64,000 bases of DNA from Candidatus Poribacteria bacterium (GCA_965205025.1 CBDBFU010000027.1:32001-96000); one strand, 5' to 3'; positions 19,951 to 49,762 are shown, counted from the stretch's first letter. Program-made: numbers and translations. Notes: a model not told the origin generated them from the sequence alone.

Positions 19951-20031
19951 ACAGACAGGGATAACCTGTTTGTCTGTCTTTTGATTGATTTCGCTATTTT
20001 GAATTAGACAAAAGGGGATTTTTGTCTAATT
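19951..20031 (-). other. Putative recombination site 1 (expression position): 25-mer dyad 19951-19975 plus perfect 12-6-12 dyad 20002-20031
   Basis: AATTAGACAAAA-ATCCCC-TTTTGTCTAATT and AGACAAACAGGTTATCCCTGTCTGT on the minus strand; homologous elements precede all four A genes. Confidence 0.7.
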
Positions 20032-20177
20032 GCGTCAATTCACGGTAGTCAATCATCTTCACATTGGATTGTCGAAGCTAAACTTTTCTTAGGTCTGTTG
20101 CTTCGTTCCAATCCACAATATCCTTAAACTTATGTTGCAGTCGGTGTTTAGAACCGTTATCCGCAAACTTGTCAGTA

Positions 20178-20206
20178 ATTATAGGTTATTAATAATATAA
20201 TGTCAA
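20178..20206 (-). promoter_or_regulatory. Consensus sigma70 promoter P1 directed at site 1/cassette A1
   Basis: TTGACA (20206-20201), 17 bp spacer, TATAAT (20183-20178). Confidence 0.88.
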
Positions 20207-20434
20207 ATGTTTTTTCTATTGTTTATGTATTAAACATTAGAACCGGGGCTTCAATCTGTTTAAAATTCTGTTTTTCAATGTTGTGTGTATGCTTTTCTGT
20301 ACCCGTTCTATACACCGTTTCGGCTGTACCGTTTTTGAAGTTCCCCTATGAACAGATTTTCATTTTAACATTATTAAAAAATTTAATCAACAATTTTTTT
20401 GCGTTTTATTACTTTATACGCACAATTGTGGATT

Positions 20435-20463
20435 ATTATACACTATTATACGTTTTATGTCAA
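20435..20463 (-). promoter_or_regulatory. Second consensus sigma70 promoter P2, same direction as P1
   Basis: TTGACA (20463-20458), 17 bp spacer, TATAAT (20440-20435). Confidence 0.8.
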
Positions 20464-20689
20464 GCAATAATTACAAAAAAACATACACCTCTGTTTAAAT
20501 AGAGTGTTTTACATTTATGACGGTTTGTTAGGTTTGTATCCTAACATTCCCGTATTATACATTATATATATACGTTATAAGTCAAATAATGGATACAAAA
20601 AAATTGAAAAAAGTTTCTGAACGATGGATTACGCGGATTTCACGGAGAAGAGGAAAGCCCGGGGCTTATTGTTTTGCGTTTTTACGTTT

Positions 20690-20985
20690 TCTACACACCT
20701 TTCGCCCCTCTGGGGCTTACGGTATTGGTGATAACGACTTCTATAAACATTCCGTCCCTACGGGACTCAAGAACATGGATCAAGCATTTTTGCTATAGAC
20801 ATTTCGTTCCTACGGAACTCAGGAATATGGAGCAAATATCTTTGCTATAAACATTTCGTAGACAGGTCTATTGAAGACACCCATGTGTTTTTAGAACGGA
20901 TATAGTCCCGTAGGGACGGAATGTCTATAGAAAACGTGTGTATCCCCATAAGTGAGTCCCGTAGGGACGGAATGTCTATATCAAC
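20690..20985. repeat. REP/REPIN cluster (GTCCCGTAGGGACGGAATGTCTATAG family) flanking tnpA
   Basis: Multiple copies in both orientations. Confidence 0.8.
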
Positions 20986-21019
20986 ATATAGGTGGAGTTT
21001 TCAAGAGACGTATGATCTT

Positions 21020-21493
21020 CTAAGAATCGCTCTCTAACACTGGATGAAAAATATATCTTTCATCATAATCAACATTAAATCGTTTTAACAACTCAATATA
21101 TTCTTCTCTAAACGACTTCTGCTTATGGTGCTTTTCTTGATTAAGGATATAATTTGATACACTCTCTATTTGTGAATGTGCGTAAGTAAAGGCAGAATAA
21201 CCTTCTTGCCATTTGAATTGACCGGCAACCCATTGCTTCTTGTTTATGAATCGTGATGAATTTGCTTTAATATCTTTTACCAATTCCGATAGTGCCATTG
21301 AAGGATCTATACCAACAAAAATGTGTATATGGTCTGGCATAGAATTGATTTGGATCACTTTATGTTTATTATTGGTGATTATACCTGTAATGAATTTGTG
21401 AAGTTCTTCTTTATGTTCCTTCGGAATTAGGTTTTGACGATGTTCAACTGCAAAAACAATATGTATATATAATTGTGTATATGTGTTTGCCAT
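21020..21493 (-). mobile_element. tnpA: IS200/IS605-family Y1 (HUH) transposase TnpA, REP-associated (RAYT-like), copy 1
   Basis: YTQLYIHIVFAV, MPDHIHIF (HUH), WQEGYSAF, YILNQEKHH; flanked by REP hairpins. Confidence 0.9.
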
Positions 21494-21554
21494 AGTATTA
21501 CTCCTTACGGTTTGTATTTTATCATTTTGTCCTTACCCAATCAACGAGAAATGT

Positions 21555-21810
21555 GCTATAGACATTCCGTCCCTACGGGACTCAAGAATATGGAGCAAAT
21601 ATCTTTGCTATAGACATTCCGTTCCTACGGAACTCAGGAATATGGAGCAAACATCTTTTCTATAAACATTTCGTAGATAGGTTTATTGAATACTCCCATG
21701 TGTTTTTAGAATGGATACAGTCCCGTAGGGACGGAATGTCTATATCAACATATAGGTGGAGTTTTCAAGACACGTATGATCTTCTATAAACATTTCGTAG
21801 ATAGGTCTAT
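21555..21810. repeat. REP cluster on the other side of tnpA copy 1
   Basis: CTATAGACATTCCGTCCCTACGGGACTC units and an inverted copy. Confidence 0.8.
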
Positions 21811-21958
21811 TCACCCAGGTGTCTTTACATCCGCTGAAGTATATGTTTCTACAGGTTGAGTATTAGGAAAGTTGACTCTAACTATTCAATTTCAATGGTA
21901 TGAAATAGTATAGCCAAAGAAGGTATTTACAGATTAATAGCAGAAAAAGATAATAGTA

Positions 21959-22210
21959 TTAGGAGAGATTGACAAGATGATGCCCACGTTCAAGTTTAAC
22001 CTGATGTAAATCAAATTCAACAAGTCGAATTACACCCGGTTCATCGTCATATACTACACCGATAGATGCAATTGTTTCTTCGGTTCCTAAAGGATCTTTA
22101 AATTCAACTATATCACGGACTTTTCCAGGATTCCCGTCAACAACAATTCTATCACCAACATTTAAGTCTTTTACATTCTGGAAAGGAATATACTTTATAG
22201 TATCTGTCAT
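21959..22210 (-). CDS. Small hypothetical protein (83 aa; beta-rich, possibly SH3/KOW-like)
   Basis: Clean ORF with AAGGA RBS; LNVGDRIVVDGNPGKV pattern. Confidence 0.6.
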   Translation of the reverse strand: MTDTIKYIPFQNVKDLNVGDRIVVDGNPGKVRDIVEFKDPLGTEETIASIGVVYDDEPGVIRLVEFDLHQVKLERGHHLVNLS

Positions 22211-22514
22211 TTTAGATTCCTTATAATATTATATTTGAATATATGAAATAGGATTGTCAGGATGTAAATTACAAATTGAATCTGTATTGCCAAATTACTT
22301 TACTGAACTAACAAGTAGTTTTATTTTGAAATACAATAGACGGTAAAGAAATAATCAACACATTCTGATTATAAACTATAAAGTTCAAAATGTCAAATTA
22401 CAATTCATTCTTATACCATTTCCAATTGATAGATTTACATTATGATTTAAGTAAAACAGGGACAATCATATACAGATCTATGAGTCCTGGGCTAATTTCT
22501 TTTTTATTTGCTTT

Positions 22515-23095
22515 TCTACGCACCTTTCGCCCCTCTGGGCTTATTGTTTTGCGTTTTTACGTTTTCTACACACCTTTCGCCCCTCTGGGGCTTATACATT
22601 ATAATAGTCACGTTTTCTACACACCTTTCGCCCCTCAAATCAACGGTATGAATGCGCGTATGGCATTCCCCGGGGCTTAGGGTATTGGTGATAACGACTT
22701 CTATAAACATTCCGTCCCTACGGGACTCAAGAATGTGTAGCACGCATTTTTGCTATAGACATTTCGTCCCGATGGGACTCAAGAATGTGTAGCACGCATT
22801 TTTGCTATAAACATTCCGTCCCTACGGGACTCAAGAATGTGTAGCACGCATTTTTGCTATAGACATTCCGTCCCGATGGGACTCAAGAATGTGTAGCACG
22901 CATTTTTGCTATAGACATTTCGTTCCTGCGGAACTCAGGAATATGGAACAAATATCTTTGCTATAAACATTTCGTAGATAGGTTTATTGAAGACACCCAT
23001 GTGTTTTTAGAATGGATATAGTCCCGTAGGGACGGAATGTCTATAGAAAACGTGTGTATTCCATAATTGAGTCCCGTAGGGACGGAATGTTTATT
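22515..23095. repeat. REP arrays: TTTTCTACACACCTTTCGCCCC units and a 52-bp tandem unit (~5 copies, 22701-22980)
   Basis: CTATARACATTYCGTCCCKAYGGGACTCAAGAATGTGTAGCACGCATTTTTG with period 52. Confidence 0.85.
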
Positions 23096-23142
23096 GAAAT
23101 CCGCGAATCAAAAAACTGATAGCCAACAGCTGATAGCCAAAC

Positions 23143-23191
23143 AAAAACAACAAGGAAACACAGACATCAAATCGGCTTCCTTGTTGTTTTT
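23143..23191 (-). terminator. Terminator-like hairpin downstream of the recombinase
   Basis: AAAACAACAAGGAA...TTCCTTGTTGTTTT stem. Confidence 0.6.
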
Positions 23192-23298
23192 GCTTGTTAA
23201 GTATATATATATTAATGTATTGTGTAGAGTGAATACGTTTCCGAACACCTACCAATCACCAATACAGATTATTCGTATAAAATTAACAGGTTTCAGTT

Positions 23299-24045
23299 TC
23301 ACGCTACTGCAGATGTATTTATATTTTGGATTCCTTTCTTATTGACCATCTCCTCAGGATCATACCCACGCCGAACCAGTTCTCCAAATAAAATATCATC
23401 CGCCACCTCTCCAACAGATGTTGAAGTATAGGTTTTCGGTTTTTCTGCCATTACAGAGATGGCTTCGCTTGCTTGCCTCAGTTTTGTATAGTTTACGCCA
23501 AGATATCTTTGTGTAGTCTTAACGTCGTTATGCCCGAGCATCTCACGTACCGTATATATATCGTTAGTTTGCTCATAAAGACGTTGTGCGTAACTTTTAC
23601 GCAAAGAATGTGTAGCAAGCTTCCCGTTGAGTCCGGCTTTTTTAAAGGCAACCTTTAATATAAGGTGTGCGGATTTCCGTGTCATCGGTTGTTTTCCCTG
23701 TCCGTTCCTTGAAGGGAAAACCGGTCGTGACATATTAAGTCGCTTCCCATACTGTTCTTGATGCCACTTGATAATTTCTTGAACCGCTATAGCTCCATCA
23801 GAATTCAGTGGCACTGCGCGTGATGTTTCTTTCCCCTTAACAATAGATTTGTCAAAAAGCAGATCCGTTACAGGCGCATTGTTCTGATAGACATCTGTGA
23901 GTCGAAGCCCCAACAGTTCAGAAATCCGTCCACCGGTAGAAACACCGAGTATAAACAGACATTTATTGCGTATGGCGAAAGTGCCTTCAAAGCATGCCAT
24001 AACCCGGCGTATTTCATCGTTCATGAGAGGTCTTGTACCTTTCAT
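23299..24045 (-). CDS. Tyrosine recombinase/invertase, catalytic-domain-only (FimB/FimE-like architecture)
   Basis: RNKCLFILGVSTGGRISELLGL, HSLRKS and LGHNDVKTTQRY supply the R-HxxR-H-Y residues; no N-terminal SAM domain; ATG at 24045 after GGAGG. Confidence 0.93.
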   Translation of the reverse strand: MKGTRPLMNDEIRRVMACFEGTFAIRNKCLFILGVSTGGRISELLGLRLTDVYQNNAPVTDLLFDKSIVKGKETSRAVPLNSDGAIAVQEIIKWHQEQYGKRLNMSRPVFPSRNGQGKQPMTRKSAHLILKVAFKKAGLNGKLATHSLRKSYAQRLYEQTNDIYTVREMLGHNDVKTTQRYLGVNYTKLRQASEAISVMAEKPKTYTSTSVGEVADDILFGELVRRGYDPEEMVNKKGIQNINTSAVA

Positions 24046-24700
24046 GGACACCTCCTAAAATAGATTTTATGTATAAAATTTATGTATAAGTATGTGTAAA
24101 TATGTATAAAGCAGTATATGCCGTATATTATGGTTATACGCTTTAATATATAAGCGTGTTGCAAGATAATTTGGCAGTAGTAGACATATTAAACACTGTT
24201 CTAATCACGCTTTAACCCGTGTGTCCCAACGCTCATACCTCCTCTGTATGGGGCGCTTCGATTCCCATTAGCGTCAATTTAGGAAAAAAATTTTGTATCC
24301 CAGGCCGGTAGGTGCGGTTTCCCAACCGCACCGAATTTGTGCCAAATCTTTGATTGAAAGCCTTCGTGTATAATCCACTTCGGTGAATCAACGGTATGAA
24401 TGCCATAAGGCATTCCCCGGGAAACCGAAGCTACCATTATTAAAGGTGAACTAAATTGACGCCTATAATGAAGGACCTCCAATTCCCGACGCTTCCATCC
24501 TTCCACCTCCTCTGTAGGAGGGAATTCCGATTCCCGATTCTTCCGATATATGATTTTCAAATATATAGTTAATCATATTAAGACAATAAACTTTTTATTA
24601 AGTAATATATTATTTATATATGACTTAATACGAATACATTTATTAACAGATACAATGTTTATAGGTAATTATCAATTACTTTTTATGAAATCATTATTTG

Positions 24701-24780
24701 AATGTGACAAAAATCCCCTTTTGTCAGGTTTAGACATGGTGGTCATAGATCAAAAAGACAAACAGGTTATCCCTGTCTGT
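24701..24780 (+). other. Putative recombination site 2
   Basis: AATGTGACAAAA-ATCCCC-TTTTGTCAGGTT (24701-24730) and invariant 25-mer (24756-24780); inverted relative to site 1. Confidence 0.7.
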
Positions 24781-24867
24781 TTAAATATTTAGTTTAGAAG
24801 ATTAGGTTAAGAAGATTTAATTTTCCCTGAATCTTTAACTTGAATTCAACAACTTTATAAGGAGTAT

Positions 24868-27800
24868 ATGATGTTATTGTCAAATAAATTGACATATTGT
24901 ATAACAACTTTTATTTTCCTGGTGGCGTTTGTAGCGGTGCCGGTGATGGCACACACGCCTGGTGACGGTCATGACGCTGCGCATGATGGTGATAATCCTG
25001 CAACTGCTGATGTAGTAGAAACAGATTTTGCAGAAGAAGTCAATCACACTCACACAGCCGCGCCAATGGTATCTGCTATTACAGCAGTTGACACAAAGGG
25101 TCTCCCCGCAGTGGGTGGTACATTAGTCAGCAATGTAGACGGAAGAGATATAGTGCTTGTGGATGATCTAACAGCAGCTGATGATGCACGCTTAGTTATT
25201 GCTCTTACTGATCATGATAATGATGCCACAACTGGCACTCCCCCAACTCCTGAGCAGCTCGCGGCGGGTGCTTTTCAATTGAAGATCACGTTTAATGAGG
25301 ATGTGTATCCCGTAGCTCAGGCTGGTACTACTGCTGGTGTAGCACCTGCCATTGCTGTTGATACTGGTGCTTTTACTGGTGTGACATTCCTCGCAGCAAC
25401 TAAAAATGGAGTGGATGTTTCTACCTCATTCACCCTTGGTACACTTACACGCGTACAAACTGCAGGGGCTGATACTACTGAAGCTACAGATGATGAATTT
25501 TCTTTAAGAGAATTTCTGGTACCGGTTACGGTGGGTGCAGGTTTAACGGAGCTTCAGCTCCCTGTATCGCTTTGGGTAACCGTGGGTGCTAATCAAGTAT
25601 ATACCTTATCGAAAATTGTCAATGGTGAAACAGTACAAGGTCGTGGAAACACAGAATATAGCACTCCTGGATCAGATCCGTTCTCCGTGGATGGTTATGT
25701 GGCACCAACAATAACAACACCAGATGATACTGCAGGTCCGGATATTGTTACATTCACTTCTTCCGCAGCTGATTCTGATGGTAATGTAACTTTTACGCTT
25801 ACCTTTAGTGAGGCTCTTGGAACAAGTGGTCTTATTCCAGCGGACCTTACGATTACTGGTGGAACGTTAGTAACAGACGGTATTACACCGGCAGGTTCAG
25901 CAACGGTTTATATGATAAAGGTTACCCCAGACGATGATCCGACAGAGGCTGAAGTTACAGTAAGGCTTAATGATGGGTCTGTATCAGATAAAGTCGATGG
26001 AGCTCGTTATGTGGAACCTATGGACGAAGCCGATGTGAAGATAGGTAGATATGATACCGTGAACCCAACGGTGAATGCAGTTGCTACAGGTGTTGTTGGA
26101 ACAGGTACAGGAACTGATGGCAACGGTATAGCAGTTGGCATGGTGAAACTTAGCGTCACTTTCAGTGAAGAACTTGGTAGTGACATGGCTGGTTTCGAAA
26201 ATGATGATATTGATAGAACGAATAGTAATGTGTTGTTAACTAACACCGATCCTATGTTAGCTACAATGCCTGAAGGCAACAAAACTGTTTGGGAATTGAC
26301 GGTTACACCTGTGCCAGCAAATGCCGCACAAGTTGTGATTGTTATTAAAGCAGGTTCAGTCATGGACATGGCTACTAATCCGTTATTGCAGGATACGATT
26401 GTAACGTGGACACGTCCTGGGGCTGACACAGAGAGTGATAATCCGGTCGTTACGATTGCACTCGATGCTGGTATGACTTACATTGACTCTGTGAGTGGTG
26501 GTACAGTTACCGTTACAGCCTCTGATAGTGGTAGTGGACTTGCGACCGGTGCGGAAATTATTGAAACTGAAGTCACTATTGAAAATGGAAGCATCATGGC
26601 AGGTAGTTTCACGAAAGGTGCAACTGCAACGTTCACTCTTATTCCAAATGTCGGTGCCATATCGGTAAAAGTGACGGTCGCCGCAGGTGCTGTGGCTGAC
26701 GCTGATGGTAATACCAATGTCCTTCAAACGGACATGACTAAGCCGAACGCGAACCCGATGACATTCAAAGTCGGTCCGACATTCACGATTCCCGCAAATA
26801 CAATATTGGTTGTCACCAAAACAGAAGGGTTGACACATCAATATCTTTCAGATCAACCGAGATTGCCGGTTACCTCAAATCCACCTGTGCCTGCTCCAGA
26901 TATTCAAACGGCTGTTTGGGATAATATGCCGGATTTAGAAGTGCTCTTTAGTCTATCTGGTGGCGGTAACGGCGGTACAATTAACTTAACGGAAGCAATG
27001 GGTCAGGACGAACTTTCACAGACACGTGATGGAGACAAACAACAAAGGAACTCTGTCCGTATATCTGAAGTGATGTGGGCATCTGATCTATCCATGCGTG
27101 GTGCACAAGACGACGCAGAAGCCGCTGAACAGTGGATTGAAATTAGTAATGATACAGGCGAAGAGGTTGAAATCTTCTTGTTCGCCAGAACAGGACGAGA
27201 TTCTGCTATCAACGTTGATGATGTAGAAGATAGAGTCGGTAACGCATATAATGGTAGTCCTGGTTCTGCACCGTGGGCAGTTAAGGGTCAGAACGGGAAT
27301 AGTTATACTGGTGTAGACTTTATCTCAATGCACAGAAGTTACGTGACCGGTGATAATCGCGGTTATGTGAATGGAACATCAAGTGGTCATTGGCATAATT
27401 CGGATAGAGAGTATCTCACACTGGCGACAAGAAACCCGAATGATGGTGCGCTTTATAATTATATCGGTTCACCGGGTCGTCCACATACTTTCAATCTAAC
27501 ACTACCGAATACCCGTGAACGTACTACAATGGTTGCGCGAGTAAAAGAGAAAAATGATGACGGCTCGGACAAAAAAGATGGAAACGGTAAGCAGATATAC
27601 AAAAGTGTGCCTACTGTTATCATCAATGAAGTTGCGAACCGTGACAATGCTAATGCCGAGTATGAATGGATTGAACTCAAGAACGTTAGCAGTAGCAATG
27701 TTAATTTACGGAACTGGATGATTTCAATGGTAACAGAAGTCGGAACAGACCGTCCATTAGTTCAGTTTCCGAATAACAATAATGCCCAGATTGGACCTGG

Positions 27801-29673
27801 AGAAGTTCTCCTGCTACTTGCTACGGATCCGAGACATGACGATGATCACCCGATCGCTGTCGGTCTGAACGTTGATATTCCTCATGCAAGTGATCAAGTA
27901 GATGGTCTGGGTCTCGTTGAAGGAGATAACAGTAACCGTAAACCACCAAGACAAAAAGTGGTAACTTTCGAAAATGGTGGTCTGCCTGATAATGGCAATT
28001 ATATATTGATTCTCCGTAGACATGACAACCATGAAGGTCATAGATCTGGTGTTGATGGCGGTAAAGGTGTTGCTGAAACCGGTGAAGCAGACATTGATAA
28101 AATCATGGATATTGCCGGGCACCATGAAGGATTGAGTAAATCCAACTATCCAGCGTCAACCCCAGAAGGTCTCAATAGTACAACCCTCTGGCCCTTGTGG
28201 AACTTCAACGGTGATATGCGTCCGCATCGTGGACATGGCGACTGGAATCACAGACGTCATAATCGTATTGAGGCAAACAAGGTTCGTTATCGTCAACACG
28301 TTTCTACTTATGCGAAAAACGATGGTGATGGTGGAACACCCGGTAACCGTGCAGGTACAGGTACAAATCACAAAGATGAAAATGTTGGAAACTACGCTTT
28401 CCGTGATGCAGATTATACCGGCCTCGGTTATAAACGTACTGCCAGAATAGCTGGCTACAATCACGGTACACCCGGATACGATGGTAATAGTGTTGGGAAT
28501 ACCGGTATTGTCAAAGCTACGGCTGCAGATGCTATGGTAACCATCAGTGAGGTCATGTATTCCACTGGTCCTGATGCTGATAATCCGATATTACCGCAGT
28601 GGATTGAGCTTTACAATAGTTCACCTACCGTCGCGGTTAATCTGAGAGGTTGGAAACTCCGCTTTGAAATGCTTGATGCTGATGGCAATCCGATGGATAG
28701 CCTCATGTACCTCGAATTCAATAAGAGTCGGGTGAAAACTATCCTTCCACAACAGACAGTTCTGATTGTTGCGGGGAATGCCAGACAAGCAAATAGTGAT
28801 TCTGCGACAGGTGGCGATGTGTTTAATGACAATCGTGTCTTCAATGTCTTCAGAGATTATGGTGGCGCGAATAAGTTCGGCGCGAACACACGTTATATGT
28901 TCTTCGATCAGAAAGTATTTTACATCGGAGTCATTGACAAAGATGGCAAGGTCGTAGACGAAGTCGGTAACCTTGACGGTGATTCCAGAACAAGTGATAC
29001 GAATAACTGGGAATTCCCATCTGGTATCGCTGCTGACGATAACCGTACATCTATCATCCGTGTCTATGATGATGCTGATGGTCTTGGCGGTGAATCTGGT
29101 AAGGCACGCACTGGAAAGAACACAGCAGAAAGTAATGTCATGCCTATTTTCGGAAGCGGTGACAAGAAAATGACAGATGATGACGGCATTGCTGATAAGT
29201 GGAGTTGGATACCCGCTGTGAATACCGAACGGGAATTCAAAATCACTATCAAGTCTACTTGGTACGGTGACGAAGACGATTACGGTACACCTGGAAACCG
29301 TCCGGGTATGGTGCTACCTGTTGAGTTATCACACTTCCGTCCCACACTTGAAGATGGCGAAGTTACGATCCGTTGGACAACCGAATCCGAACTTGACAAC
29401 GCCGGATTTAATATCCTTCGTAGTGAAACTCGGGACGGTGAGTATACACAGATCAACGCTGAGCTTATCGAAGGTGCTGGTACCACAGGTGAACGTAACA
29501 CCTATAAATGGGTTGATCAGACTGCCAAACCAGGTGTTGTGTACTACTACCAAATTGAAGATGTATCTTTTGCTGGTGAACGCCAAGCACTTGCTATAAC
29601 CAAGTTGAAAGGCTTAATCTCAGCAGAGAACAAACTTACAACGACGTGGAGTGAGCTAAAAGCTTCACAATAA
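24868..29673 (+). CDS. Cassette A2: giant secreted Ig-like plus lamin-tail-domain protein (1601 aa)
   Basis: Signal peptide (VMA-H), acidic Ig-like repeats, three LTD-like modules, LPVELSHF...KLTTTWSELK C-terminus; AAGGAG RBS. Confidence 0.92.
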   Translation: MMLLSNKLTYCITTFIFLVAFVAVPVMAHTPGDGHDAAHDGDNPATADVVETDFAEEVNHTHTAAPMVSAITAVDTKGLPAVGGTLVSNVDGRDIVLVDDLTAADDARLVIALTDHDNDATTGTPPTPEQLAAGAFQLKITFNEDVYPVAQAGTTAGVAPAIAVDTGAFTGVTFLAATKNGVDVSTSFTLGTLTRVQTAGADTTEATDDEFSLREFLVPVTVGAGLTELQLPVSLWVTVGANQVYTLSKIVNGETVQGRGNTEYSTPGSDPFSVDGYVAPTITTPDDTAGPDIVTFTSSAADSDGNVTFTLTFSEALGTSGLIPADLTITGGTLVTDGITPAGSATVYMIKVTPDDDPTEAEVTVRLNDGSVSDKVDGARYVEPMDEADVKIGRYDTVNPTVNAVATGVVGTGTGTDGNGIAVGMVKLSVTFSEELGSDMAGFENDDIDRTNSNVLLTNTDPMLATMPEGNKTVWELTVTPVPANAAQVVIVIKAGSVMDMATNPLLQDTIVTWTRPGADTESDNPVVTIALDAGMTYIDSVSGGTVTVTASDSGSGLATGAEIIETEVTIENGSIMAGSFTKGATATFTLIPNVGAISVKVTVAAGAVADADGNTNVLQTDMTKPNANPMTFKVGPTFTIPANTILVVTKTEGLTHQYLSDQPRLPVTSNPPVPAPDIQTAVWDNMPDLEVLFSLSGGGNGGTINLTEAMGQDELSQTRDGDKQQRNSVRISEVMWASDLSMRGAQDDAEAAEQWIEISNDTGEEVEIFLFARTGRDSAINVDDVEDRVGNAYNGSPGSAPWAVKGQNGNSYTGVDFISMHRSYVTGDNRGYVNGTSSGHWHNSDREYLTLATRNPNDGALYNYIGSPGRPHTFNLTLPNTRERTTMVARVKEKNDDGSDKKDGNGKQIYKSVPTVIINEVANRDNANAEYEWIELKNVSSSNVNLRNWMISMVTEVGTDRPLVQFPNNNNAQIGPGEVLLLLATDPRHDDDHPIAVGLNVDIPHASDQVDGLGLVEGDNSNRKPPRQKVVTFENGGLPDNGNYILILRRHDNHEGHRSGVDGGKGVAETGEADIDKIMDIAGHHEGLSKSNYPASTPEGLNSTTLWPLWNFNGDMRPHRGHGDWNHRRHNRIEANKVRYRQHVSTYAKNDGDGGTPGNRAGTGTNHKDENVGNYAFRDADYTGLGYKRTARIAGYNHGTPGYDGNSVGNTGIVKATAADAMVTISEVMYSTGPDADNPILPQWIELYNSSPTVAVNLRGWKLRFEMLDADGNPMDSLMYLEFNKSRVKTILPQQTVLIVAGNARQANSDSATGGDVFNDNRVFNVFRDYGGANKFGANTRYMFFDQKVFYIGVIDKDGKVVDEVGNLDGDSRTSDTNNWEFPSGIAADDNRTSIIRVYDDADGLGGESGKARTGKNTAESNVMPIFGSGDKKMTDDDGIADKWSWIPAVNTEREFKITIKSTWYGDEDDYGTPGNRPGMVLPVELSHFRPTLEDGEVTIRWTTESELDNAGFNILRSETRDGEYTQINAELIEGAGTTGERNTYKWVDQTAKPGVVYYYQIEDVSFAGERQALAITKLKGLISAENKLTTTWSELKASQ

Positions 29674-29873
29674 GGTTGAATTTCAGGGATAATTTAACCA
29701 ATTCTCCTCACAGTAAGGATGCTGCAGTATCCTTACTGTGGGAAATCTAACTAAAACTATTCCCGTTTAGGAGACTGTTGAAAATCCGGTGCAACAGTTT
29801 CCTACTGGGAATACTTAGCTAACCTAAGCTATTCAATAAAGTAAGGACATTGCTTGCAATGTCCTTACTTTAT
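29674..29873 (+). terminator. Four-hairpin 3' trailer of A2 with terminal stem 29836-29873
   Basis: Stems GGTTGAATT/AATTTAACC, CACAGTAAGGAT/ATCCTTACTGTG, TAGGAGACTGTTG/CAACAGTTTCCTA and ATAAAGTAAGGACATTGC/GCAATGTCCTTACTTTAT. Confidence 0.75.
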
Positions 29874-30354
29874 ATACACACAGTTTCCTACGATATGATT
29901 TATGGTAGGTTCGGTGAATCAACGGTATGAACACCTTTAGGCGTTCCCCGGGAAACCGCATCATATAGGCGTCAATTTAGTGGTTTTCCCAGGCCGGTAG
30001 GTGCGATTTCCTAATCGCACTGGATCCTTCGCGAAAAAATTTATGAACGCAATTGGAACAAACCCGGTTCGGTGAATCAACGGTATGAACACCTTTAGGC
30101 GTTCCCCGGGAAACCGAACCTACCGACCTGAAATTTATAGCGTACTTCTCCTTAAATTGACGCTAATGAATCAACGGTATGAATGCCTTATGGCATTCCC
30201 TGTGGTTAGGAAAACGCATCTACCGGGCATGAAAAAATAGGAAACGGCACTACCTTTGTTGAAGAAACACAAGATTACATAAAACCTTTTTCAAATTTCA
30301 GAAGACATTATCGAAGACATCATATTTTTCTTATATTTATTTAGGAGACATACA

Positions 30355-33300
30355 ATGAATAACACATTTTTCACGCGAAAGCTTGGACTCGGTATCCTCA
30401 TAGCGCTTGTATTCGCGTTTGGTGTGCAGAGCGTAGCAGACGCACAGTTGCGAGTTAGCAGCAGCAGAGGTGATTTACAAGTCAAACCTTTGGTTGCGAA
30501 CCAAACATTTGAGTTCTCGTTTTATATAAGCGGTATTCCAGGAAGCAGACCTGATACTTCTCCTGGGACTGCCGATACTGAGCGGGAAGAGATAACGATA
30601 ACTCCAACTGGCGGGGCTTTCACTGAAGTAAGAATGGGTAGCACACGCTACACATCAGCAACCAAAACTCTTACAGGGGCTTTCACGCTACAAGAATGGC
30701 ATGCCGATAATACCAATGGGATTGCTACTACCGCGGATGATACTGATCTTGGTGCTACTGAAGGTGACCTTGCTACCGGCACTGTAACTGTGACGGTTGA
30801 ACCTACAGCTGTCGGACCTATTACAGTTACAGTTGCTGCAGCAGGCGATTCAACCGGCGATTTTGAAACACTAACATTCACGGTTTATGCTGTACAAATT
30901 CCTACGGACGTTCAAGGTCTCAGGTTTGCAGCAAGCACTCCGACCGTAAATCCAACAACTAAAACAACCTATCCACCATTCGATCCGAATGTTCCCTTAT
31001 ATGATGAGGAAGTTATTGTCACGGTATTTGATGCTTCTGACGCAGCTGGAGGCAATCGGGCGTATGCACTTGTTGATTTTGAAGTTTTTGAGGGACCCGG
31101 ATTTGTTTATCAGGATCTGAACGATGACTCAGAACCTGACCCTGGTGAAAGCAGAAATTCAAAAACTACAAGAACATTAACTCGTCTGGGTACAGATAAC
31201 GATATGGCAAGGGTAAGACTGCGGACGAATGGCGGCACTAACAAAGTTCGCGCAACAATTACTAACACACAACCACCCCAAACCTACGAGATTACTTATC
31301 TCTATCAAGGAGACGGGACAACGACGACACCACCGCCACAACCAGGAGGTCCACAACTTACTGTTAACGCACCTGCCACCGGCACTGTCGGGCAACCGAT
31401 TACTGTTACAGCGACTGTCTCTGATAATCGCGCCCGTCGAGTGGTCGCTTTCTCAAGTAATAGAGGTGGCACTTTTTCACAAACTCCTATACTAACGGAG
31501 AGTAACGGTGTTGCAACAATACAGTTCACACCGAGTACTCCCGGGACAGTAACCATCACCGCACGCTCGACCGGCTATACAAACGGTACCGATACGGTTC
31601 AGGTCTCGTCAGCCCTCCCTCGCCTCACAGTGCTTACACCGACACCACCCATCAGAGGAAATACGGGGCAAAGACTAAACATAGTTATTGGCACAGGAGC
31701 TCCTGCGGGTCTAACAGTCACACTGACAGGCACCAATTTTCAACCTGCCATTGCCCAAGGTGTCACACTTTCCAACGGTTCCGTTACGATCCCCGTTACG
31801 CTACCGAATAATCCTGGGGGTCATCTACTCACTGCCAGTGCTCCTGGATATCAAAATACGAGTATCTCAGTGATTGTTGGAGGGGCAACGACTGGTGGCC
31901 CAGTGCAGTTAACGATTCCCAGCGGACAAACACAAACCGTGTCTATCGGGAGTAATGCTCCGTTGCGGGTACGTGTAACAAGTACAGTGTCGAATGTAAG
32001 GCAATCGGGTGTTACTGTCACGTTCCGCAATGCCAGTGGAACTACCATTCATACAGCTACTACCGTTAACGGCGAAGCCACCTATAACTTTCCTGTAGTT
32101 ATACTGGGTCCACACACGGTATCGGCAACTCTACTCGCGGCGAATAATGCTAATTTTGATGTAAGTGGCGTAACCCCTGTAACCTTTACGATCACAGGAA
32201 CAAGACAACAGCCAACGCAATCCACGCGACTCACAATTCTTCCTCCACGGAACAGTCTCAATCAAATATTGACCAGTGGGGGTCCAGGGGCATCCTATCC
32301 GTTGACAATTCTGTATAATAATACGCCGGCTCTCAACCAATTAATTACACTTACCGTTACGAACATCGCACAACCAACACAAATACCTGTCCAACCCATT
32401 ACGTTAATAACGGATGCAAATGGCAGAGCCACCACGCCGGATACATTCAGACTACCGACCACCCCCGGAACGTATACTATTAGAGCCACTATCGGCACCG
32501 AATTCCGAGAAATTACGGTTACAGTACTGGCGATTAGACTCGTGAAAGATGCAAGCGATAGCGTCTCTGGTGATAACCAGGAAGGGGACCGCGGCAAAGT
32601 GCTTGATGATCCGTTTCTCCTCAAAGTCATTCGGGACGTCGCTAATGTTGAAACCGCTGTACAAGGCGTACCGGTAACGTTTACGGTAGTTGATGGCGAT
32701 GGGGAACTTTCAACTTCAGGTAGTGCTACAAGCGGTTCCAATTCACTAACCGTCAACAGTGATACGAACGGTGAAGTGCGTGCATACCTTGTCTTGGGTG
32801 AAGACGATGAAGATAATAGGGTTCGCGCAAGCGCTGGGGATACTACTGTGACAAGTGTGTTCTTTGACGCTACAGGATCGCTCGTTCCAGATGCCATTGA
32901 AATCGTATCTGGTAATAACCAACGGGTAACACCGAACCGGTATACCGATCCGATGGTCGTCCGGGTTACAGATGAGGACGGCGACGATCTGCAAGGCGCA
33001 ACAGTGACCTTCAGTTTGAGAGGTCCCAGTGGCACCTTAACACCACGTACCGCAACGACAGATCGCAATGGTGAAGCAGAGGCAGAATTATTGCCACGTA
33101 GTGCCGGCACATACTTCGTTGAGGCAAGGGTTACGGGCGTCACATCTGTTCGCTTTACAATAACAGTCGGTGATTTAGCAGATTCTATAGAAATCTATTC
33201 CGGGAATAACCAGAGTGGTGACCCAGGAACAGAACTTGACGATCCACTTGTTGTTGAAGTGCTTGACGAAGATGACGATGTTGTTTCAGGTGTTACCGTA

Positions 33301-35410: not shown

Positions 35411-35490
35411 AATGTGACCCAAATCCCCTTTTGTCATGTTCAAGCCTTGTAGTCAATTAAAAGATAGACAAACAGGTTATCCCTGTCTGT
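35411..35490 (+). other. Putative recombination site 3
   Basis: AATGTGACCCAA-ATCCCC-TTTTGTCATGTT (35411-35440) and invariant 25-mer (35466-35490). Confidence 0.68.
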
Positions 35491-38600: not shown

Positions 38601-39927
38601 CCATGGTCTTGGAGGCGTCAACGATGGTGCCAGTGGTGTTGGTGCGCATGAAAATAAGAATGAAGGTGGCAAAGCCGCGTTCCGTGATGAAGGTTATTCC
38701 GGTATCGGTTACAAACGCCAAGCTTCCAAAACCAATTTCCACGGCGGAAGTCCTGGCTACCACGGTAACGTGAGCGGACGAGTTGATGCTACTGCGAAAG
38801 TTGTTATCAGTGAAATTATGTTGTCTCAAGGCAACGGTCGTGTGAAACTGCCACAGTGGATTGAACTCTACAATCCTTCTAAGACGCATGCAGTCAACCT
38901 CACGGATAATGCTGGCTGGAGACTCGTTATCGAAAATCCAAATCGTGCACCTATCAGAACTATCCACTTCAAGAGTGGTAAGCATGATGTGAAAACGATC
39001 CTGCCGAATCAAACAGTGCTCATCGTTTCATCGGCGGCAAGGGATTATGGTAGTGATACCTTATCGAGAGGTACGGTATTTCCAAATACTCGTGTCCTGA
39101 ATGCATATACAGTCCTGAAGGGTGAAACTTTTGAGATGGCAAGCCGGACAGATGTGCTCCTTGATCCAAAGGCTTTCAACGTCAGATTGTTGGATGGTAA
39201 AACACACGACAATAAGCCTGGTGGACGCTATATTGGTGACGTATCAGACGAAGTTGGTAACCTTGACGGTAACCCGCGAACGAATGATGCGGCTGCATGG
39301 GAATTCCCAGACGGTGTGACTGAAGAGGGTGATCGCACTTCACTCATCCGTATCTTTGATGAAGGTATGGCTCGCAGTGGCACAGGCATGGTGAAACCGC
39401 TTGGTGGCACAGATGGTGTCGGTGTTGACGGAATGCCCGGTATTGATGCCAAGTATAGTTGGGTTCATGCCGCTGATACAGAAGACTTTGAGAAGCTCTT
39501 TGTCCGTCATACGTGGTATGGTGCTGAAACTGATTACGGCACACCCGCAGACCGTACAGGTCAAGTCTTACCTGTTCAATTATCACACTTCCGTCCGACG
39601 CTTGAAGATGGTAAAGTTACGATCCGTTGGACAACCGAATCCGAACTTAACAACGCTGGATTTAATATCCTTCGTAGTGAAACACGGTACGGTGAGTACA
39701 AGCAGGTAAATGCTGAACTGATTCAAGGTCACGGAACAACCGGTGAACGTCATACCTATAAATGGGTTGACGAATCCGCTAAACCGAATGTAGTTTACTA
39801 CTATCAAATTGAAGACGTATCCTTCGCCGGCGAGCGTCAAACGCTTGCTCTAACCAAGTTGAAAGGACTTATCTCAGCCGTAGGTAAAGCCACAACAACG
39901 TGGGGCGATATTAAAGAGGTACAATAG
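35615..39927 (+). CDS. Cassette A3: giant secreted lamin-tail-domain protein; one frameshift near 36025
   Basis: ORFs 35615-36043 and 36226-39927 join; the signal peptide is identical to A4 and the C-terminal ~970 aa are essentially identical to A4. Confidence 0.87.
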
Positions 39928-41092: not shown

Positions 41093-41210
41093 AAGATCAT
41101 ACGTGTCTTGAGAACTCCACCTATATGTTGATATAGACATTCCGTCCCTACGGGACTCAATTATGTGGGTATACACGTTTTCTATAGACATTCCGTCCCT
41201 ACGGGACTCA

Positions 41211-41785: not shown

Positions 41786-41791
41786 AAGGAA

Positions 41792-42040: not shown

Positions 42041-42089
42041 AAACTCCAGATTCACCCTTGTTGATATAGCATTCCCCGGGGCTAACCCC

Positions 42090-43226: not shown

Positions 43227-43242
43227 TAAACAAAGGTGCTGA

Positions 43243-43437
43243 CTTGTAGCATAAACTTCCAGTTTGTGCATCTTTAATTCTTGTAGCATAAACTTCCAGT
43301 TTGTGTATCTTTGTTTGGTGAACTTAAAATCAATAGAACGGTAATCCAGTTTGTGCATCTTTGATTCTTGTAGCATAAACTTCCAGTTTGTGCATCTTTG
43401 ATTCTTGTAGCATAAACTTCCAGTTTGTGCATCTTTG
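43243..43437 (+). repeat. 37-bp tandem REP units between rplM and rpsI
   Basis: CTTGTAGCATAAACTTCCAGTTTGTGCATCTTT at 43243, 43280, 43367 and 43404. Confidence 0.85.
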
Positions 43438-43470
43438 TAAGGACGAAAGGTGTAAAGAAGAGGAATATAT

Positions 43471-45606: not shown

Positions 45607-48600
45607 ATGAATTCATTAAAAAATATTATTGAACGATGCCACCGACGGAGAGAAAAACCACTCCAACAGCGAAAAACAACTGTCGTCGCTGCACCATATA
45701 AGGGAGGCCATCCATACGAACATACTGTCTATTACGCACACGGATACTCTGAAACACTCTATGCATTAGAAAAAGTGAATATCTCCTTTATGCCAATAGG
45801 ACGCGCCCCAGGAAATGACCGCGGTCCAAGATCTTATGATGCACCTCATAGGTACGAAGAACGACAAGGATGGGAAAATTGGGCACTACGACGATGGATA
45901 GATTCCTGGGGAATTCAAATATATACCGGGACACCCTCTCAACAACATGGCGCACAATGGCATGATGTCCTAATTAAATATGAAGCACTCTGTGAGGCAC
46001 CAAAACTTGTTATAGATTGTATCACCGCACTCGCAGAAAGTGTCGTCAACCCACTTATAACATTGACAAAATCAGGAGACCTACGCTTTTCTTATCGAAT
46101 CACAAATTACCTACATCCACAATTCAAAGAAGACCAATCTTATATCTATAAAGAAACACAAAACCAACAAACTGTATACCTGCAAATCTTAGGTGAAAAA
46201 GGAGTTAGTTGTTGGGACGCACGCTACGAGATAATCATGGGGGACCTCTTAGATCCGCCTATCATTTCAAAAAATTCGCTCTTTGAACCTATTGATACCC
46301 TACGGAAGATTCTCCACCAACCTAAATCTTCCACTATAGTCGAAATCACTAATCAAAAAGAAAAAATCTATATTACTACACCACCCATATCCCTCGGATC
46401 ACATAGACTTGACCTCGCAAAAGAAGCTTTTATAAGACGCGGTTTTACCTACCTACAAGAATACAACGGGTTTCACCAAATGACACCCATTCACAATAAA
46501 GATCCAAATAGGCATGTCTCTTTATGGGAACGCGACAGAATCGTATGGGTTCGCGCATCTACAATTGACTTCGGTATACCCATTGAAACTACACCAATCA
46601 CAGACATCTGGGATGATACAGGCATTATTACAATACGATCTTCAAAAGCACAACACCATACCGGGATTTATCACAATGTTCGGACAACAAACCTTAGTCC
46701 TTTGACAATTAAGCGACCTGCCACCATACTAAAAAAACAGACAAATCCCACAGAAAAACAGAAACACTTTAATCAGCAGGATTGTCAAGACTTATTAAAC
46801 GGGGACACACGCATACTTGTCATACAGGCTGATACATTTCATCAACTTAATAACCTAATACAATCTATATTGTCTAATGGGACACCGATATGTCTAAATG
46901 TAGAACCGGATCATCTCGTAGAAAAGGTTGAGGAACACTTTAAAGATAAAAAAATAAACTTTACACGACTTAAACCCCGGATGCACCTATGGGAAAAGGT
47001 CAAGAATATTCACATTAACCAACGCATGCAAAATCCATTTAAACATGGGAACGTCTGTGAAGATGCTGAACGGTGCGATACCCTTGAGAGAAAAGGCGGA
47101 GATCCAAACATACATATCTGTCCACACTGTCCCGTCTACACCACATGCCAAGAAAAAGGGTATTTGTCTCAACCCCTTCAATTACAGCAAGCACAAACAC
47201 AACTATTAACAGATACTCAACTGTTTTTCAATTCTGATTCAATAAACTCAGATAGTCAACTCATGAAAAATGTTGACAATACCGACAGACTTTATATCCT
47301 TCATCAACCGAATGTGACGAGTCAAACTACTATATGTGAACTCTTTATAGAGAGATTGCAGGAGTGGATCGTCAATTGGCGGGGAGAGGCACTCGGAAAC
47401 TTCGCCAATTTCTTGATGAACGCTTTTGAACCCGATAAAATGTACTATAGCGATACCATTAAGCGAATACGATCAACGGTTCAAGCATTTGAATGGCAGG
47501 AAGAAGAAATTGTCAGACAAATGCAACAGGTAAATGTTACATGTCAAGTTACAGAACCGGGGTATGTTGATCCTGACACGGGACAAGAATTAGCAAAATT
47601 CACGATAAAATTCAAAGGAGGGGCATCGGCGTATTTACCCTTAAACAGCGAGGCAAAAGAACTTTTGATAGCACGCAAAATTCCTGTCTTTATCCTTAAA
47701 TCCTTTGAACTTAATACTAACATGAAAATTCCGATGTCAATGTCAAAGGCTATTGAGTTAGGGATATTGAAAACAGATACTGTTGACCATATAGAAGATT
47801 TTCCCACTGTCTGTAAAAACTCAAACCAGACAATTTGGCATCAACTCAAACAGTTCTTCAACCATTACGCTCGTAATGAAGATGTACGCGTTCGATGGTA
47901 TGAAGAAATGCTGTTATTCAGGTGGGCAAACACAATACATCCATCAATAAAACGACTTATTATCACAACCACTACCCTTAATCAAACACAGATTCAAAGA
48001 TTATTTCCTGATGAGACAATTGAAGTCCGAACCCTAAAACCTAAAAAGTGGAAGAAAGGAAACAGAGTTTTTCAGATACGCACGGGTTTGTATCCAAGAG
48101 AAAGGATCTTAGACTATCGTGGGAACTGGGATGTCCTGGGGTTAACCAACATTGGGGGACGAATATTCTCACGAATCTTAGCAGAAATTGAAAAGGATCA
48201 GAACATTTTCCATACGATTATCACCTATGGGGGTGCTCTAAAACAAATAAAGGAATTGGTTAAGACAGAGAATGTCACTTTTTTTAAGAATACTGACAAA
48301 AACTTCATATATCACCTTCTTGTCGAACAAAATTTTCAGCAAGCTATAGAAAAATCACAAGTCGTTTGGATCGTCGGGAGTCCAGAACCTTCAAAAGGAA
48401 ATGTTTGGCGCCAAGTTCAAACACTCTACGGAAATGACAAGACCCCACTACACTATGAAAAAGATGCCGGTTCCGGACTCTATAAAGATGAAAGATTACA
48501 ACATGTCTATCAACAGATGATCGTCAATTCTATTAAATTTATCATTGATTCTATAAAGTTAGATCAAATAGCAAATAAAACCATTGTCATCGTCAGCGGC

Positions 48601-49029
48601 GTAAACATTCCAAACATCACGAATAGACCAGAAACCGTACTTTTTGATTGGGAAGATTTTGAGGTAGCAAGTGAACTAAACACCCTTCCTGAAACGATTG
48701 CTATACGCGAACGTTTTGAGGTAGAACGCGAAAAATTAAATGCCAATTCCAGCAGAGAAACTGTAGAACGGGTTTTAGGGTGTTCACGAAGACAAGCAAA
48801 CCGTAAATTACAAAAGTTTAGAGGCGGCACACCTTTGCGAGTTTCATTCCGTGATCAAATCTTGGAAATGCTTACTGATGGAGATAAGAAAACCGCTGAA
48901 TTGGTACAAGCCATTGACGGCAATCCAGAAGCCATTAAAAACGAACTCAAACGCCTCGTCGATAAAGGTGAAATCATCAGAGTCGAAAGAGGCATCTATT
49001 CCGCACCTGCAACCTCAAACACCAAATAA
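45607..49029 (+). CDS. Large hypothetical protein (1140 aa) with a Cys cluster and C-terminal HTH/winged-helix
   Basis: VCEDAERC...ICPHCPVYTTC; C-terminal DQILEML..KTAELVQAI..AIKNELKRLVDKGEIIRVERGIY. Confidence 0.8.
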   Translation: MNSLKNIIERCHRRREKPLQQRKTTVVAAPYKGGHPYEHTVYYAHGYSETLYALEKVNISFMPIGRAPGNDRGPRSYDAPHRYEERQGWENWALRRWIDSWGIQIYTGTPSQQHGAQWHDVLIKYEALCEAPKLVIDCITALAESVVNPLITLTKSGDLRFSYRITNYLHPQFKEDQSYIYKETQNQQTVYLQILGEKGVSCWDARYEIIMGDLLDPPIISKNSLFEPIDTLRKILHQPKSSTIVEITNQKEKIYITTPPISLGSHRLDLAKEAFIRRGFTYLQEYNGFHQMTPIHNKDPNRHVSLWERDRIVWVRASTIDFGIPIETTPITDIWDDTGIITIRSSKAQHHTGIYHNVRTTNLSPLTIKRPATILKKQTNPTEKQKHFNQQDCQDLLNGDTRILVIQADTFHQLNNLIQSILSNGTPICLNVEPDHLVEKVEEHFKDKKINFTRLKPRMHLWEKVKNIHINQRMQNPFKHGNVCEDAERCDTLERKGGDPNIHICPHCPVYTTCQEKGYLSQPLQLQQAQTQLLTDTQLFFNSDSINSDSQLMKNVDNTDRLYILHQPNVTSQTTICELFIERLQEWIVNWRGEALGNFANFLMNAFEPDKMYYSDTIKRIRSTVQAFEWQEEEIVRQMQQVNVTCQVTEPGYVDPDTGQELAKFTIKFKGGASAYLPLNSEAKELLIARKIPVFILKSFELNTNMKIPMSMSKAIELGILKTDTVDHIEDFPTVCKNSNQTIWHQLKQFFNHYARNEDVRVRWYEEMLLFRWANTIHPSIKRLIITTTTLNQTQIQRLFPDETIEVRTLKPKKWKKGNRVFQIRTGLYPRERILDYRGNWDVLGLTNIGGRIFSRILAEIEKDQNIFHTIITYGGALKQIKELVKTENVTFFKNTDKNFIYHLLVEQNFQQAIEKSQVVWIVGSPEPSKGNVWRQVQTLYGNDKTPLHYEKDAGSGLYKDERLQHVYQQMIVNSIKFIIDSIKLDQIANKTIVIVSGVNIPNITNRPETVLFDWEDFEVASELNTLPETIAIRERFEVEREKLNANSSRETVERVLGCSRRQANRKLQKFRGGTPLRVSFRDQILEMLTDGDKKTAELVQAIDGNPEAIKNELKRLVDKGEIIRVERGIYSAPATSNTK

Positions 49030-49682
49030 TACCATTTCTGGTAATTAAAGTCTCATTAATAGAATCTCTTTAATGTACCACAAACTTTATGAGGATTAAG
49101 TAAATATTTCGGTAATCCAGTCCATAAACTTATCGTAGGGGCGGGGTTAACCCGCCCGTATATTACCGATTTAATAAATTAATCTTCATTTAGTTTGTGA
49201 TCTTCCACCCCTCTCTTTGTACCACAAACTTTTAGTTTGTGATCTTCCACTCTTCTGTATGAGGGAATTCCAATTCCCGACCCTTCCATCCTTTATGTCA
49301 GAATCGCGGATTACGCGGATTACACAGATTTCACGGAACGGTTTTTGCTTGTGGTAAATGTTCATGTGAATGAAAAAGTGTTTGTGTTGCTTAAAAAACA
49401 ACATCATTTTTACCAAAACAACTCTTCTCCGCGTAATCCGAGAATCAAAAAACCCTCTCTTTGTACCACAAACTTTATGAAGATTAAGAAAATATTTCGG
49501 TAATTCTAATTTCCCAAACCCGGTAGGTGCGGTTTCCTAACCGCACTGGATCTTATCTTTAAAATTACCGAATTTAAAAATTAATCTTCATTTAGTTTGT
49601 GATCTTCCACTCTTCTGTATGAAGGAACTCCCATTCCCGACCCTTCCAATATATAACTTCAAATATACATATAAATCATATT

Positions 49683-49762
49683 AAAGATACAATAATCCCC
49701 TTTTGTCATGTTCAAGCCTGGTAGTCATAACACAGATAGACAAACAGGTTATCCCTGTCTGT
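49683..49762 (+). other. Putative recombination site 4 (left arm of the upstream dyad degenerate)
   Basis: AAAGATACAATA-ATCCCC-TTTTGTCATGTT (49683-49712) and invariant 25-mer (49738-49762). Confidence 0.65.

Follow-up and report, generated by a model that had tools for sequence, protein, structure and literature searches.

The leaders of four large surface-protein genes (A1-A4) in a stretch of DNA from an uncultivated marine member of Candidatus Poribacteria (GCA_965205025.1 CBDBFU010000027.1:32001-96000; the whole 64-kb stretch is called the window here) share a composite element at which a switch based on site-specific inversion probably recombines. The switch would be of the kind known from the vpma locus and its recombinase Xer1, with promoters flipped between surface-protein cassettes. 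The element consists of an upstream 12-mer element, U, and a downstream 25-mer, D, and two inverted copies of it, sites 1 and 2, bound a proposed invertible segment of 4.8 kb (19976..24755). An initial annotation of this DNA had put the composite site forward as a candidate crossover sequence. That proposal gains from the position of the sites at the ends of a segment that carries a tyrosine recombinase gene, with inverted pairs of sites in two related genomes, a reversal of the segment in one of them and promoters at one site only; the roles it assigned to the two dyads fared less well.

In the proposed mechanism, a 248-aa recombinase encoded on the segment would pair inverted composite sites and exchange strands. 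The segment lies between two divergent operons, A1-B1 and A2-B2, and recombination between sites 1 and 2 would flip it, so that its promoters drive the opposite cassette. Because sites 3 and 4 are oriented as site 2 is, two further cassettes would be within reach of inversion with site 1, and these larger inversions would bring A3 or A4 under the promoters. As most of the difference between the A proteins lies in the N-terminal halves, the result would be surface variation. We infer that this enzyme is the one that inverts the segment. Strands are most likely exchanged in the asymmetric centre of D (TTATC with its flanking G and C), and U may be a second binding or exchange site.

A composite site in every A-gene leader

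The 25-mer D (AGACAAACAGGTTATCCCTGTCTGT) occurs in exactly four copies, at 19951-19975(-), 24756-24780(+), 35466-35490(+) and 49738-49762(+), and a scan of the window combined with shuffled sequences confirmed these four positions, as initially annotated. At up to three mismatches no further copy was found in the window, and 0 of 100 shuffles gave any match. The 16-nt core of D (AACAGGTTATCCCTGT) at up to three mismatches and the U 12-mer (TCCCCTTTTGTC) at up to one mismatch are likewise confined to the four sites; for each, none of 100 shuffles reached four copies. Measured from first base to first base, U and D are 42 bp apart at sites 2-4 and 43 bp apart at site 1, a near-fixed distance within the window. 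In two related genomes that bear the site (loci L001 and L002), the distance is 41-51 bp, or 46-56 bp to the 16-nt core, whose start lies 5 bp later.

Composite sites are found once in each A-gene leader (4/4 A genes) and nowhere else within the 64 kb, and 84, 87, 124 and 123 nt separate the 25-mer from the start codon (ATG) of A1, A2, A3 and A4, respectively. Sites 1 and 2 are mutually inverted, and sites 3 and 4 have the orientation of site 2. D of site 1 (19951..19975, minus strand) forms the left end of the proposed segment in the A1 leader, and D of site 2 (24756..24780, plus strand) forms its right end in the A2 leader. Site 3 (35424..35490, plus strand; U 35424-35435, D 35466-35490) precedes A3, and site 4 (49696..49762, plus strand; U 49696-49707, D 49738-49762) precedes A4, both without a strong upstream promoter.

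The two motifs differ in their symmetry. D is an imperfect dyad with an asymmetric centre, ACAGG-TTATC-CCTGT, and partly symmetric bases continue outside it. The upstream motif had been described as a second dyad at a fixed distance. This description holds at site 1, where U is a perfect 12-6-12 palindrome around ATCCCC (20002..20031, minus strand, with the 12-mer at 20018-20007) that gives a 12-bp stem in folding, and the near-fixed spacing stands as well; a conserved dyad it is not. Its left arm reads GACAAAA at sites 1 and 2 (site 2: GACAAAA-ATCCCC-TTTTGTC, 24706..24725, plus strand), GACCCAA at site 3 and TACAATA at site 4, and just ATCCCC/TTCCCC and TTTTGTC are invariant. Because the left arm is degenerate outside site 1, U is better defined as a conserved core plus a right arm.

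The leaders of the four A genes also carry common invariant blocks. One of these, TTCCCTGAATC(T)TTAAC-TGA, lies between D and the ribosome-binding site (for example, at 24826-24850) and is invariant in 8/8 leaders of three genomes. A perfect AT-rich palindrome (AAATATCAATATTGATATTT) stands just 3' of D in the A3 and A4 leaders (35491-35530 and 49763-49802); variants of it occur in the L001 and L002 leaders, and the A1 and A2 leaders have lost it. Between the promoter and U at site 1, an inverted repeat (GGATTGGAACGAAGC ... GCTTCGACAATCC; 20100-20060(-)) is kept in all three promoter-bearing flanks.

A recombinase and strong promoters on the segment

From left to right, the segment holds a promoter-bearing flank (P-flank), a transposase gene of the IS200/RAYT type with arrays of REP-like (repetitive extragenic palindrome) hairpins, an open reading frame (ORF) of 83 aa, the recombinase gene and a promoterless flank (S-flank). 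The recombinase gene (23299..24045, minus strand; 248 aa) is preceded by the ribosome-binding site GGAGGTG, and its product matches PF00589 with an E-value of 1.6e-28. The protein starts directly at the catalytic domain, without an N-terminal core-binding domain, and has a 67-aa tail after the catalytic tyrosine. When it is aligned to XerD, the Arg, Lys, His-x-x-Arg, His and Tyr positions are all present, and R40, K70, H146, R149, H172 and Y181 are invariant in 37/37 aligned relatives. The predicted structure is confident for the catalytic domain and not for the tail after about residue 197 (mean predicted local distance difference test score 73.6; one of five models folded well). In a search by fold, the matches were catalytic domains of tyrosine recombinases in general (integrase 3nkh, XerH, XerA and IntI4), with nothing more specific.

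Assignment of the recombinase to a named family was less successful. The XerC/XerD chromosome-dimer resolvases were rejected, as the XerD/XerC models matched in their C-terminal half alone (108-283 of 290) with 96 bits against a cut-off of 330. The FimB/FimE invertase model NF007371 is covered at near full length (residues 5-204 aligned to 5-194 of its 198 positions), and the family cut-offs were missed (53.7 versus 222 bits for NF007371; 46.5 versus 221 bits for NF007370). A serine invertase of the Hin/Gin type was rejected, the sole Pfam match of the protein being the tyrosine-type PF00589. The short contigs (mostly <1.8 kb) on which the closest recombinase homologues lie were considered as a sign of heterogeneity and discounted, because the sources hold short contigs anyway and REP arrays adjoin the gene.

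Promoters were scored out of 12 against the sigma-70 consensus, on the sense strand upstream of each site. Six perfect promoters (12/12; TTGACA-17/18-TATAAT) are present in the window, against one in 20 shuffles combined; they lie before two tRNA genes, before rplM and before two other ORFs, and two face site 1. The nearer of these two (20178..20206, minus strand; TTGACA-17-TATAAT) faces site 1 and A1, and the second lies at 20435..20463 on the same strand. Upstream of sites 2, 3 and 4, the sense strand has no match of at least 10/12. By this criterion, a consensus scan, strong promoters would be present at one site and absent from the other three. The 29-mer of the nearest promoter is identical in L002 and differs by one spacer base in L001, where three perfect promoters in the P-flank all point outward through site b of that locus. 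The S-flank, by the 5' end of the recombinase gene, is conserved in the three genomes and has no strong promoter. Promoters of the Bacteroidetes type (TTTG / TAnnTTTG), looked for by eye, were not seen in the flanks; judged by its motifs, the organism is one that uses Shine-Dalgarno sequences and canonical sigma-70 promoters.

Other promoter-like sequences occur nearby. An 11/12 match lies antisense at the starts of A1 and A2 and reads back to the site (19851-19880(+) and 24883-24854(-)), and at sites 1-3 the antisense strand of D scores as a terminator-like hairpin followed by T-rich sequence. The motif TGTAACC-N15-CATTCT occurs at 4151-4178 and 6316-6343, before a gene for a tetratricopeptide-repeat thioredoxin and before an anti-sigma gene, and is conserved in L001 at 1077. 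A gene for a sigma factor of the extracytoplasmic function (ECF) type (5697-6293) adjoins that anti-sigma gene, and the motif is probably the promoter of this neighbouring ECF sigma.

Inverted site pairs and a reversed segment in related genomes

A contig search with the recombinase as query returned 67 loci, 46 of them from Candidatus Poribacteria at 60-87% identity. In L001 (recombinase 87% identical), composite sites at 9279-9303(-) and 13257-13281(+) flank the recombinase in inverted orientation. An equivalent inverted pair, at 120-144(-) and 3260-3284(+), surrounds the recombinase in L002 (85%), a locus that is an entire contig of 3403 bp and ends within both inverted arms. Across the three genomes, TCCCCTTTTGTC and AACAGGTTATCCCTGT are invariant at 8/8 sites while the surrounding DNA diverges, and the order S-flank, recombinase, P-flank inside the segment is the same in all three. 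Among the 46 Poribacteria loci, U and D were found in L001 and L002 alone, and so were long inverted repeats within 7 kb on each side of the recombinase. L003 has one copy of the 12-mer with one mismatch after the recombinase gene, without D; the remaining loci show scattered inverted matches of 12-18 nt, which we take as chance, and L039 has a 43-nt repeat.

Comparison with L001 bears directly on inversion. The flanks of L001 are collinear with the window and in the same orientation; the left flank holds the TonB receptor, ECF sigma, anti-sigma and tRNA genes, and the right flank holds rplM and purA. The recombinase and the P-flank, which lie between them, match in reverse, L001 9977-10748 corresponding to window 24070-23298 and L001 12623-13459 to window 20616-19803. 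As a consequence of collinear flanks around a reversed segment, the segment occurs in both orientations in nature, and the difference between the window and L001, as aligned, is a natural inversion with ends inside the composite sites, seen between two species-level metagenome assemblies and not within one population. The promoters face the tRNA-side cassette in the window and the rplM-side cassette in L001. Both A genes of L001 are intact, and their products (1414 and 1413 aa) share 70% identity and diverge mostly within the first ~500 residues.

Changes of ancestry across the site

The eight sites of the three genomes (W1-W4 in the window, L001a/b and L002a/b) were cut into blocks and compared by pairwise identity. 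Upstream of U, they group by flank type, with P {W1, L001b, L002b} at 76-85% set against S {W2, W3, L001a, L002a}. Between U and D there are two types, one that starts with TAATTCA {W1, L001b, L002a} and one that starts with ATGTTCA/AGGTTTA {W2, L001a, L002b}; the inter-motif stretches of W3 and W4 are closer to the latter. Downstream of D, the sites group by genome, with 93-96% identity between W1 and W2, 95-96% between W3 and W4, 86-94% between L001a and L001b and 98-100% between L002a and L002b, over the part present. The three groupings place the boundaries at U and at D. The breakpoint in ancestry that had been predicted within the ~80 bp of the composite site is thus borne out. The observation that the cassettes group as {A1,A2} versus {A3,A4} downstream of the 25-mer was also correct, identity being 30-54% between the groups. 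An AT-rich flank thought to be shared upstream of sites 2-4 stood in part: sites 2 and 3 are 66% alike, and both are 24-38% identical to site 1, but site 4 shares only the word AGATACAAT, which abuts its 12-mer, and some more distal similarity to site 3.

These blocks also bear on the position of exchange. For the window and L001, each inter-motif block keeps to its own P- or S-flank, which puts the exchange that separates these two genomes at D or further downstream. L002 shows the other combination, with each inter-motif block next to the opposite outer flank, and this calls for exchange within the 13 bp that the sites have in common at U. Exchange at U is suggested by these sequences through a short signal, which resides mainly in the first 15 nt after U. 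The earlier view that one dyad is the crossover and the other accessory does not fit such a pattern, with block boundaries at both motifs and an L002 swap that hints at exchange on both sides.

A bolder reading is that U and D are two separate exchange points for a single catalytic-domain-only recombinase conserved across Poribacteria, shuffling a ~30-bp leader module independently of promoter flank and cassette, with holA-linked enzymes acting in trans elsewhere. Alternate use of U and D would explain both the three-block mosaic and the swapped block in L002. We consider this reading speculative and rather doubtful.

Points against the switch and alternative explanations

Several observations weigh against a switch as proposed here. 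Assemblers can misorient segments bounded by inverted repeats, and the inversion was seen between species-level assemblies. The same inversion places the exchange no closer than at or downstream of D, and inverted homology continues for ~145 nt past D (96%; L002 98-100%). The signature of exchange at U is short, L001a and L002b having 14/15 matches after U as counted by eye. Weak promoter-like matches (9/12) are present upstream of sites 2-4, and the promoter-facing cassette, A1-B1, is broken into several frames as assembled here. As direct repeats, sites 3 and 4 enclose rplM and purA, and recombination between them would delete these probably essential genes; either the system favours inversion over deletion or deletions are simply lost. 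Finally, the 42 loci L005-L046 (60-65% identity) have neither comparable inverted repeats nor A genes nearby, and the recombinase family is therefore not tied to this locus type. The recombinase follows holA, for the delta subunit of DNA polymerase III, in 3/3 distant loci inspected (L005, L007 and L013; ~8300-10800), and hisS was identified near it in L007, with an ORF in the equivalent position in two of the three loci. The surroundings of these distant orthologues are a housekeeping-like context.

The segment could instead invert by RecA-type recombination across the inverted homology of leaders and signal peptides, with U and D kept for another purpose such as regulation and the recombinase a passenger. 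In the window, this homology totals ~170 nt, made up of the 25-mer and the ~145 nt at 96% beyond it. Identity between arms 1 and 2 at D itself extends over ~27 bp; the arms can be told apart by the base preceding the 25-mer, by an indel of 3 nt located 4 nt past this motif and by ~6 positions within the 145 nt that follow. A crossover anywhere in the ~170 nt would explain the inversion between the window and L001 equally well. The arms are 86-100% identical within L001 and within L002 and different between genomes, a concerted evolution beyond D such as homologous exchange or gene conversion would give, and exchange of that kind alone could cause inversions. The location of recombinase orthologues elsewhere, beside holA, in most Poribacteria would also suit a passenger. 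Against this explanation, the recombinase lies inside the segment, in the same internal order, in all three site-bearing genomes, and the arm homology in the window begins exactly at the 25-mer. U is an isolated island of identity, 12-20 bp long, with unrelated DNA between it and D; homologous exchange would not preserve such an island. The inter-motif swap in L002 needs exchange within 13 bp at U, too short for efficient RecA action, as RecA recombination is inefficient on homology of such length. On balance, we consider RecA-type inversion unlikely.

Alternatively, U and D could be transcription-control sites, either operators or promoters of an alternative sigma factor such as an ECF sigma, shared by a family of paralogous genes. 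Both motifs do occur in every A-gene leader, and an ECF sigma/anti-sigma pair with its own motif, TGTAACC-N15-CATTCT, is encoded 13 kb away. At site 3 and at L001a, the promoterless flank and U together read TGTGAC/T-N16-CATGTT. The initial annotation had raised a resemblance of sites 2 and 3 to the ECF motif as its own alternative. This alternative proved weak: no site matches TGTAACC-N15-CATTCT itself, and the relaxed form TGT[AG]A[CT]-N14-18-CAT[TG][CT]T is present at two of the five promoterless sites, with site 2, site 4 and L002a failing. Nor does a regulator site explain the inverted pairing around a recombinase in three genomes, the orientation of L001 or the change of ancestry at the motifs. 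Control sites as the whole explanation are therefore very unlikely. The regulatory and recombination readings are nevertheless compatible and not mutually exclusive.

A third alternative, that the dyads act at the RNA level as hairpins in a long 5' leader, serving stability, attenuation or control of translation, is extremely improbable. In its favour, a leader from the promoter at 20206-20178 would span ~300 nt and contain U as well as D. Folding with DNA parameters gives a hairpin for D (z -2.3 to -3.0) and a strong one for U at site 1 (z -6.0), D of site 1 on the sense strand and D on the antisense strand score as weak terminator-like hairpins, and further leader blocks such as TTCCCTGAATCTTAAC are invariant at 8/8 sites. 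Against it, an Rfam scan of the whole window gave two tRNAs only and no family at the composite sites, and the left arm of U is not conserved at 5/8 sites, so that no hairpin would form there. The changes in the D arms between genomes are non-compensatory: at the sixth pair, the window has A-C where L001 and L002 have A-T, and at the eighth, C-G of the window is T-T in L001b.

Cassettes and other features of the locus

Each of the four A genes encodes a large protein with a signal peptide, immunoglobulin-like (Ig-like) domains and lamin-tail domains. Cassette 1 (8424..19866, minus strand; A1 19866-14955, B1 14378-8424) is the one that currently faces the promoters. Cassette 2 (24868..34911, plus strand) comprises an intact A2 with lamin-tail and Ig-like domains (24868-29673, 1601 aa) and B2 (30355-34911, 1518 aa). 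Cassette 3 (35615..39927, plus strand) holds A3, which is split over two frames, and cassette 4 (49886..54241, plus strand) holds an intact A4 of 1451 aa. The second large gene, B, that follows A1 and A2 encodes Ig-like and dockerin domains and C-terminal sorting domains of the type IX secretion system (T9SS). A1, B1 and A3 are split over several frames in the present assembly and are either pseudogenes or assembly errors.

Among the A paralogues, the C-terminal halves are conserved and the N-terminal halves strongly divergent. A3 and A4 are 99.9% identical over the 3' 3.2 kb, with the first ~1.2 kb unrelated, a pattern that looks as if the variable N-terminal part alone had been exchanged. 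They belong to a dispersed duplication with an offset of ~14.3 kb (~35200-42300 and ~49400-56500) that includes the site, the A gene, the RAYT gene and repeats, and that brackets rplM, purA and an ORF of 1140 aa.

The IS200/RAYT-type Y1 transposase gene (PF01797) is present in three copies, at 21020-21493(-), 40604-41092(+) and 54969-55457(+), each with arrays of ~52-bp REP-like hairpins (GTCCCGTAGGGAC...) beside it (20741-21022, 22701-23062, 40288-40559 and 54602-54924). One copy lies inside the segment, and the RAYT genes of L001 and L002 differ from it in position and orientation. The 83-aa ORF in the segment (21959-22210, minus strand) has its own perfect sigma-70 promoter (22396-22368(-)); neither Pfam nor NCBIfam gives a match for it, and both L001 and L002 lack a counterpart. 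Short tandem and dispersed repeats are found between rplM and purA and elsewhere (42254-42602, 43206-43438 and 57451-57530), in families of units with CTGCGTAATC and of 37-bp units CTTGTAGCATAAACTTCCAGTTTGTGCATCTTTGA.

Relation to known systems and implications

Inversion systems with parts of this layout are known in other bacteria. In Salmonella Hin and phage Mu Gin, the recombinase gene lies on an invertible segment bounded by short inverted sites, and the Hin segment carries an outward promoter. Both enzymes belong to the serine recombinases and depend on an enhancer and Fis. The Poribacteria segment resembles them in carrying its recombinase (and, as for Hin, an outward promoter) and differs in that its enzyme is a tyrosine recombinase. 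FimB and FimE of E. coli are small tyrosine recombinases with little beyond the catalytic domain that flip a promoter on fimS, an element of ~0.3 kb that excludes the recombinase genes. The small catalytic-domain enzyme and the promoter flip are thus alike, whereas the segment described here is 4-4.8 kb long and includes the recombinase gene. Another system of comparable layout is the sap locus of Campylobacter fetus, where a promoter-bearing segment of several kilobases lies between opposed surface-gene homologues with conserved 5' regions, and larger inversions reach further cassettes. Inversion of sap is RecA-dependent and is not known to involve a dedicated recombinase, unlike the present locus with its recombinase in the segment and its short invariant motifs.

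The vpma/Xer1 system of Mycoplasma agalactiae is an experimentally defined switch with a unique promoter in the locus. Every gene has its recombination site no more than 72 nt before the start codon, together with a conserved leader and signal peptide; the recombinase gene lies next to the locus, and inversions place a different gene behind the promoter (PMC2268961). On that description, paralogous surface genes, conserved leaders and signal peptides, leader sites and a locus-encoded tyrosine recombinase are common to vpma, its relatives (vsp/Mbr in M. bovis and vsa/HvsR in M. pulmonis) and the locus studied here. The differences are considerable: the present locus belongs to the phylum Candidatus Poribacteria and is known from sequence alone, its proteins are unrelated, 1400-1600 aa long and not lipoproteins, its recombinase and promoters lie inside the segment, the recombinase has no N-terminal core-binding domain, and the site is bipartite, with U and D ~45 bp apart.

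A further parallel, drawn by description only, is the R64 shufflon with its tyrosine recombinase Rci and sfx sites, for which two papers describe multiple inversions at asymmetric sites, with inversion favoured over deletion between sites of the same orientation (PMC11852207, PMC11850598). U similarly conserves a core and one arm only, and the present locus would need a comparable bias to spare rplM and purA. The shufflon rearranges 3' coding segments of pilV, as opposed to promoters versus whole genes, and Rci is larger.

A full-text search found no literature linking Poribacteria with inversion or recombinase systems or with phase variation, and the phylum is absent from the main text of a broad survey of programmed inversions. 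The kind of system is known, and the phylum, the pair of recombinase and site and the bipartite nature of the site are new to the searchable literature. Poribacteria are uncultivated, and we know of nothing that has been established about how they vary their cell surface. If the proposed inversion switch is real, the alternation of secreted proteins of 1400-1600 aa would be relevant to the encounters of these bacteria with hosts, grazers or phages. The 248-aa recombinase and its ~80-bp site also make a compact pair for experiment, with natural markers on both sides of each motif. Should the reading with two exchange points prove true, a phylum that includes sponge symbionts would have the programmed inversion of giant surface proteins as one of its general traits.

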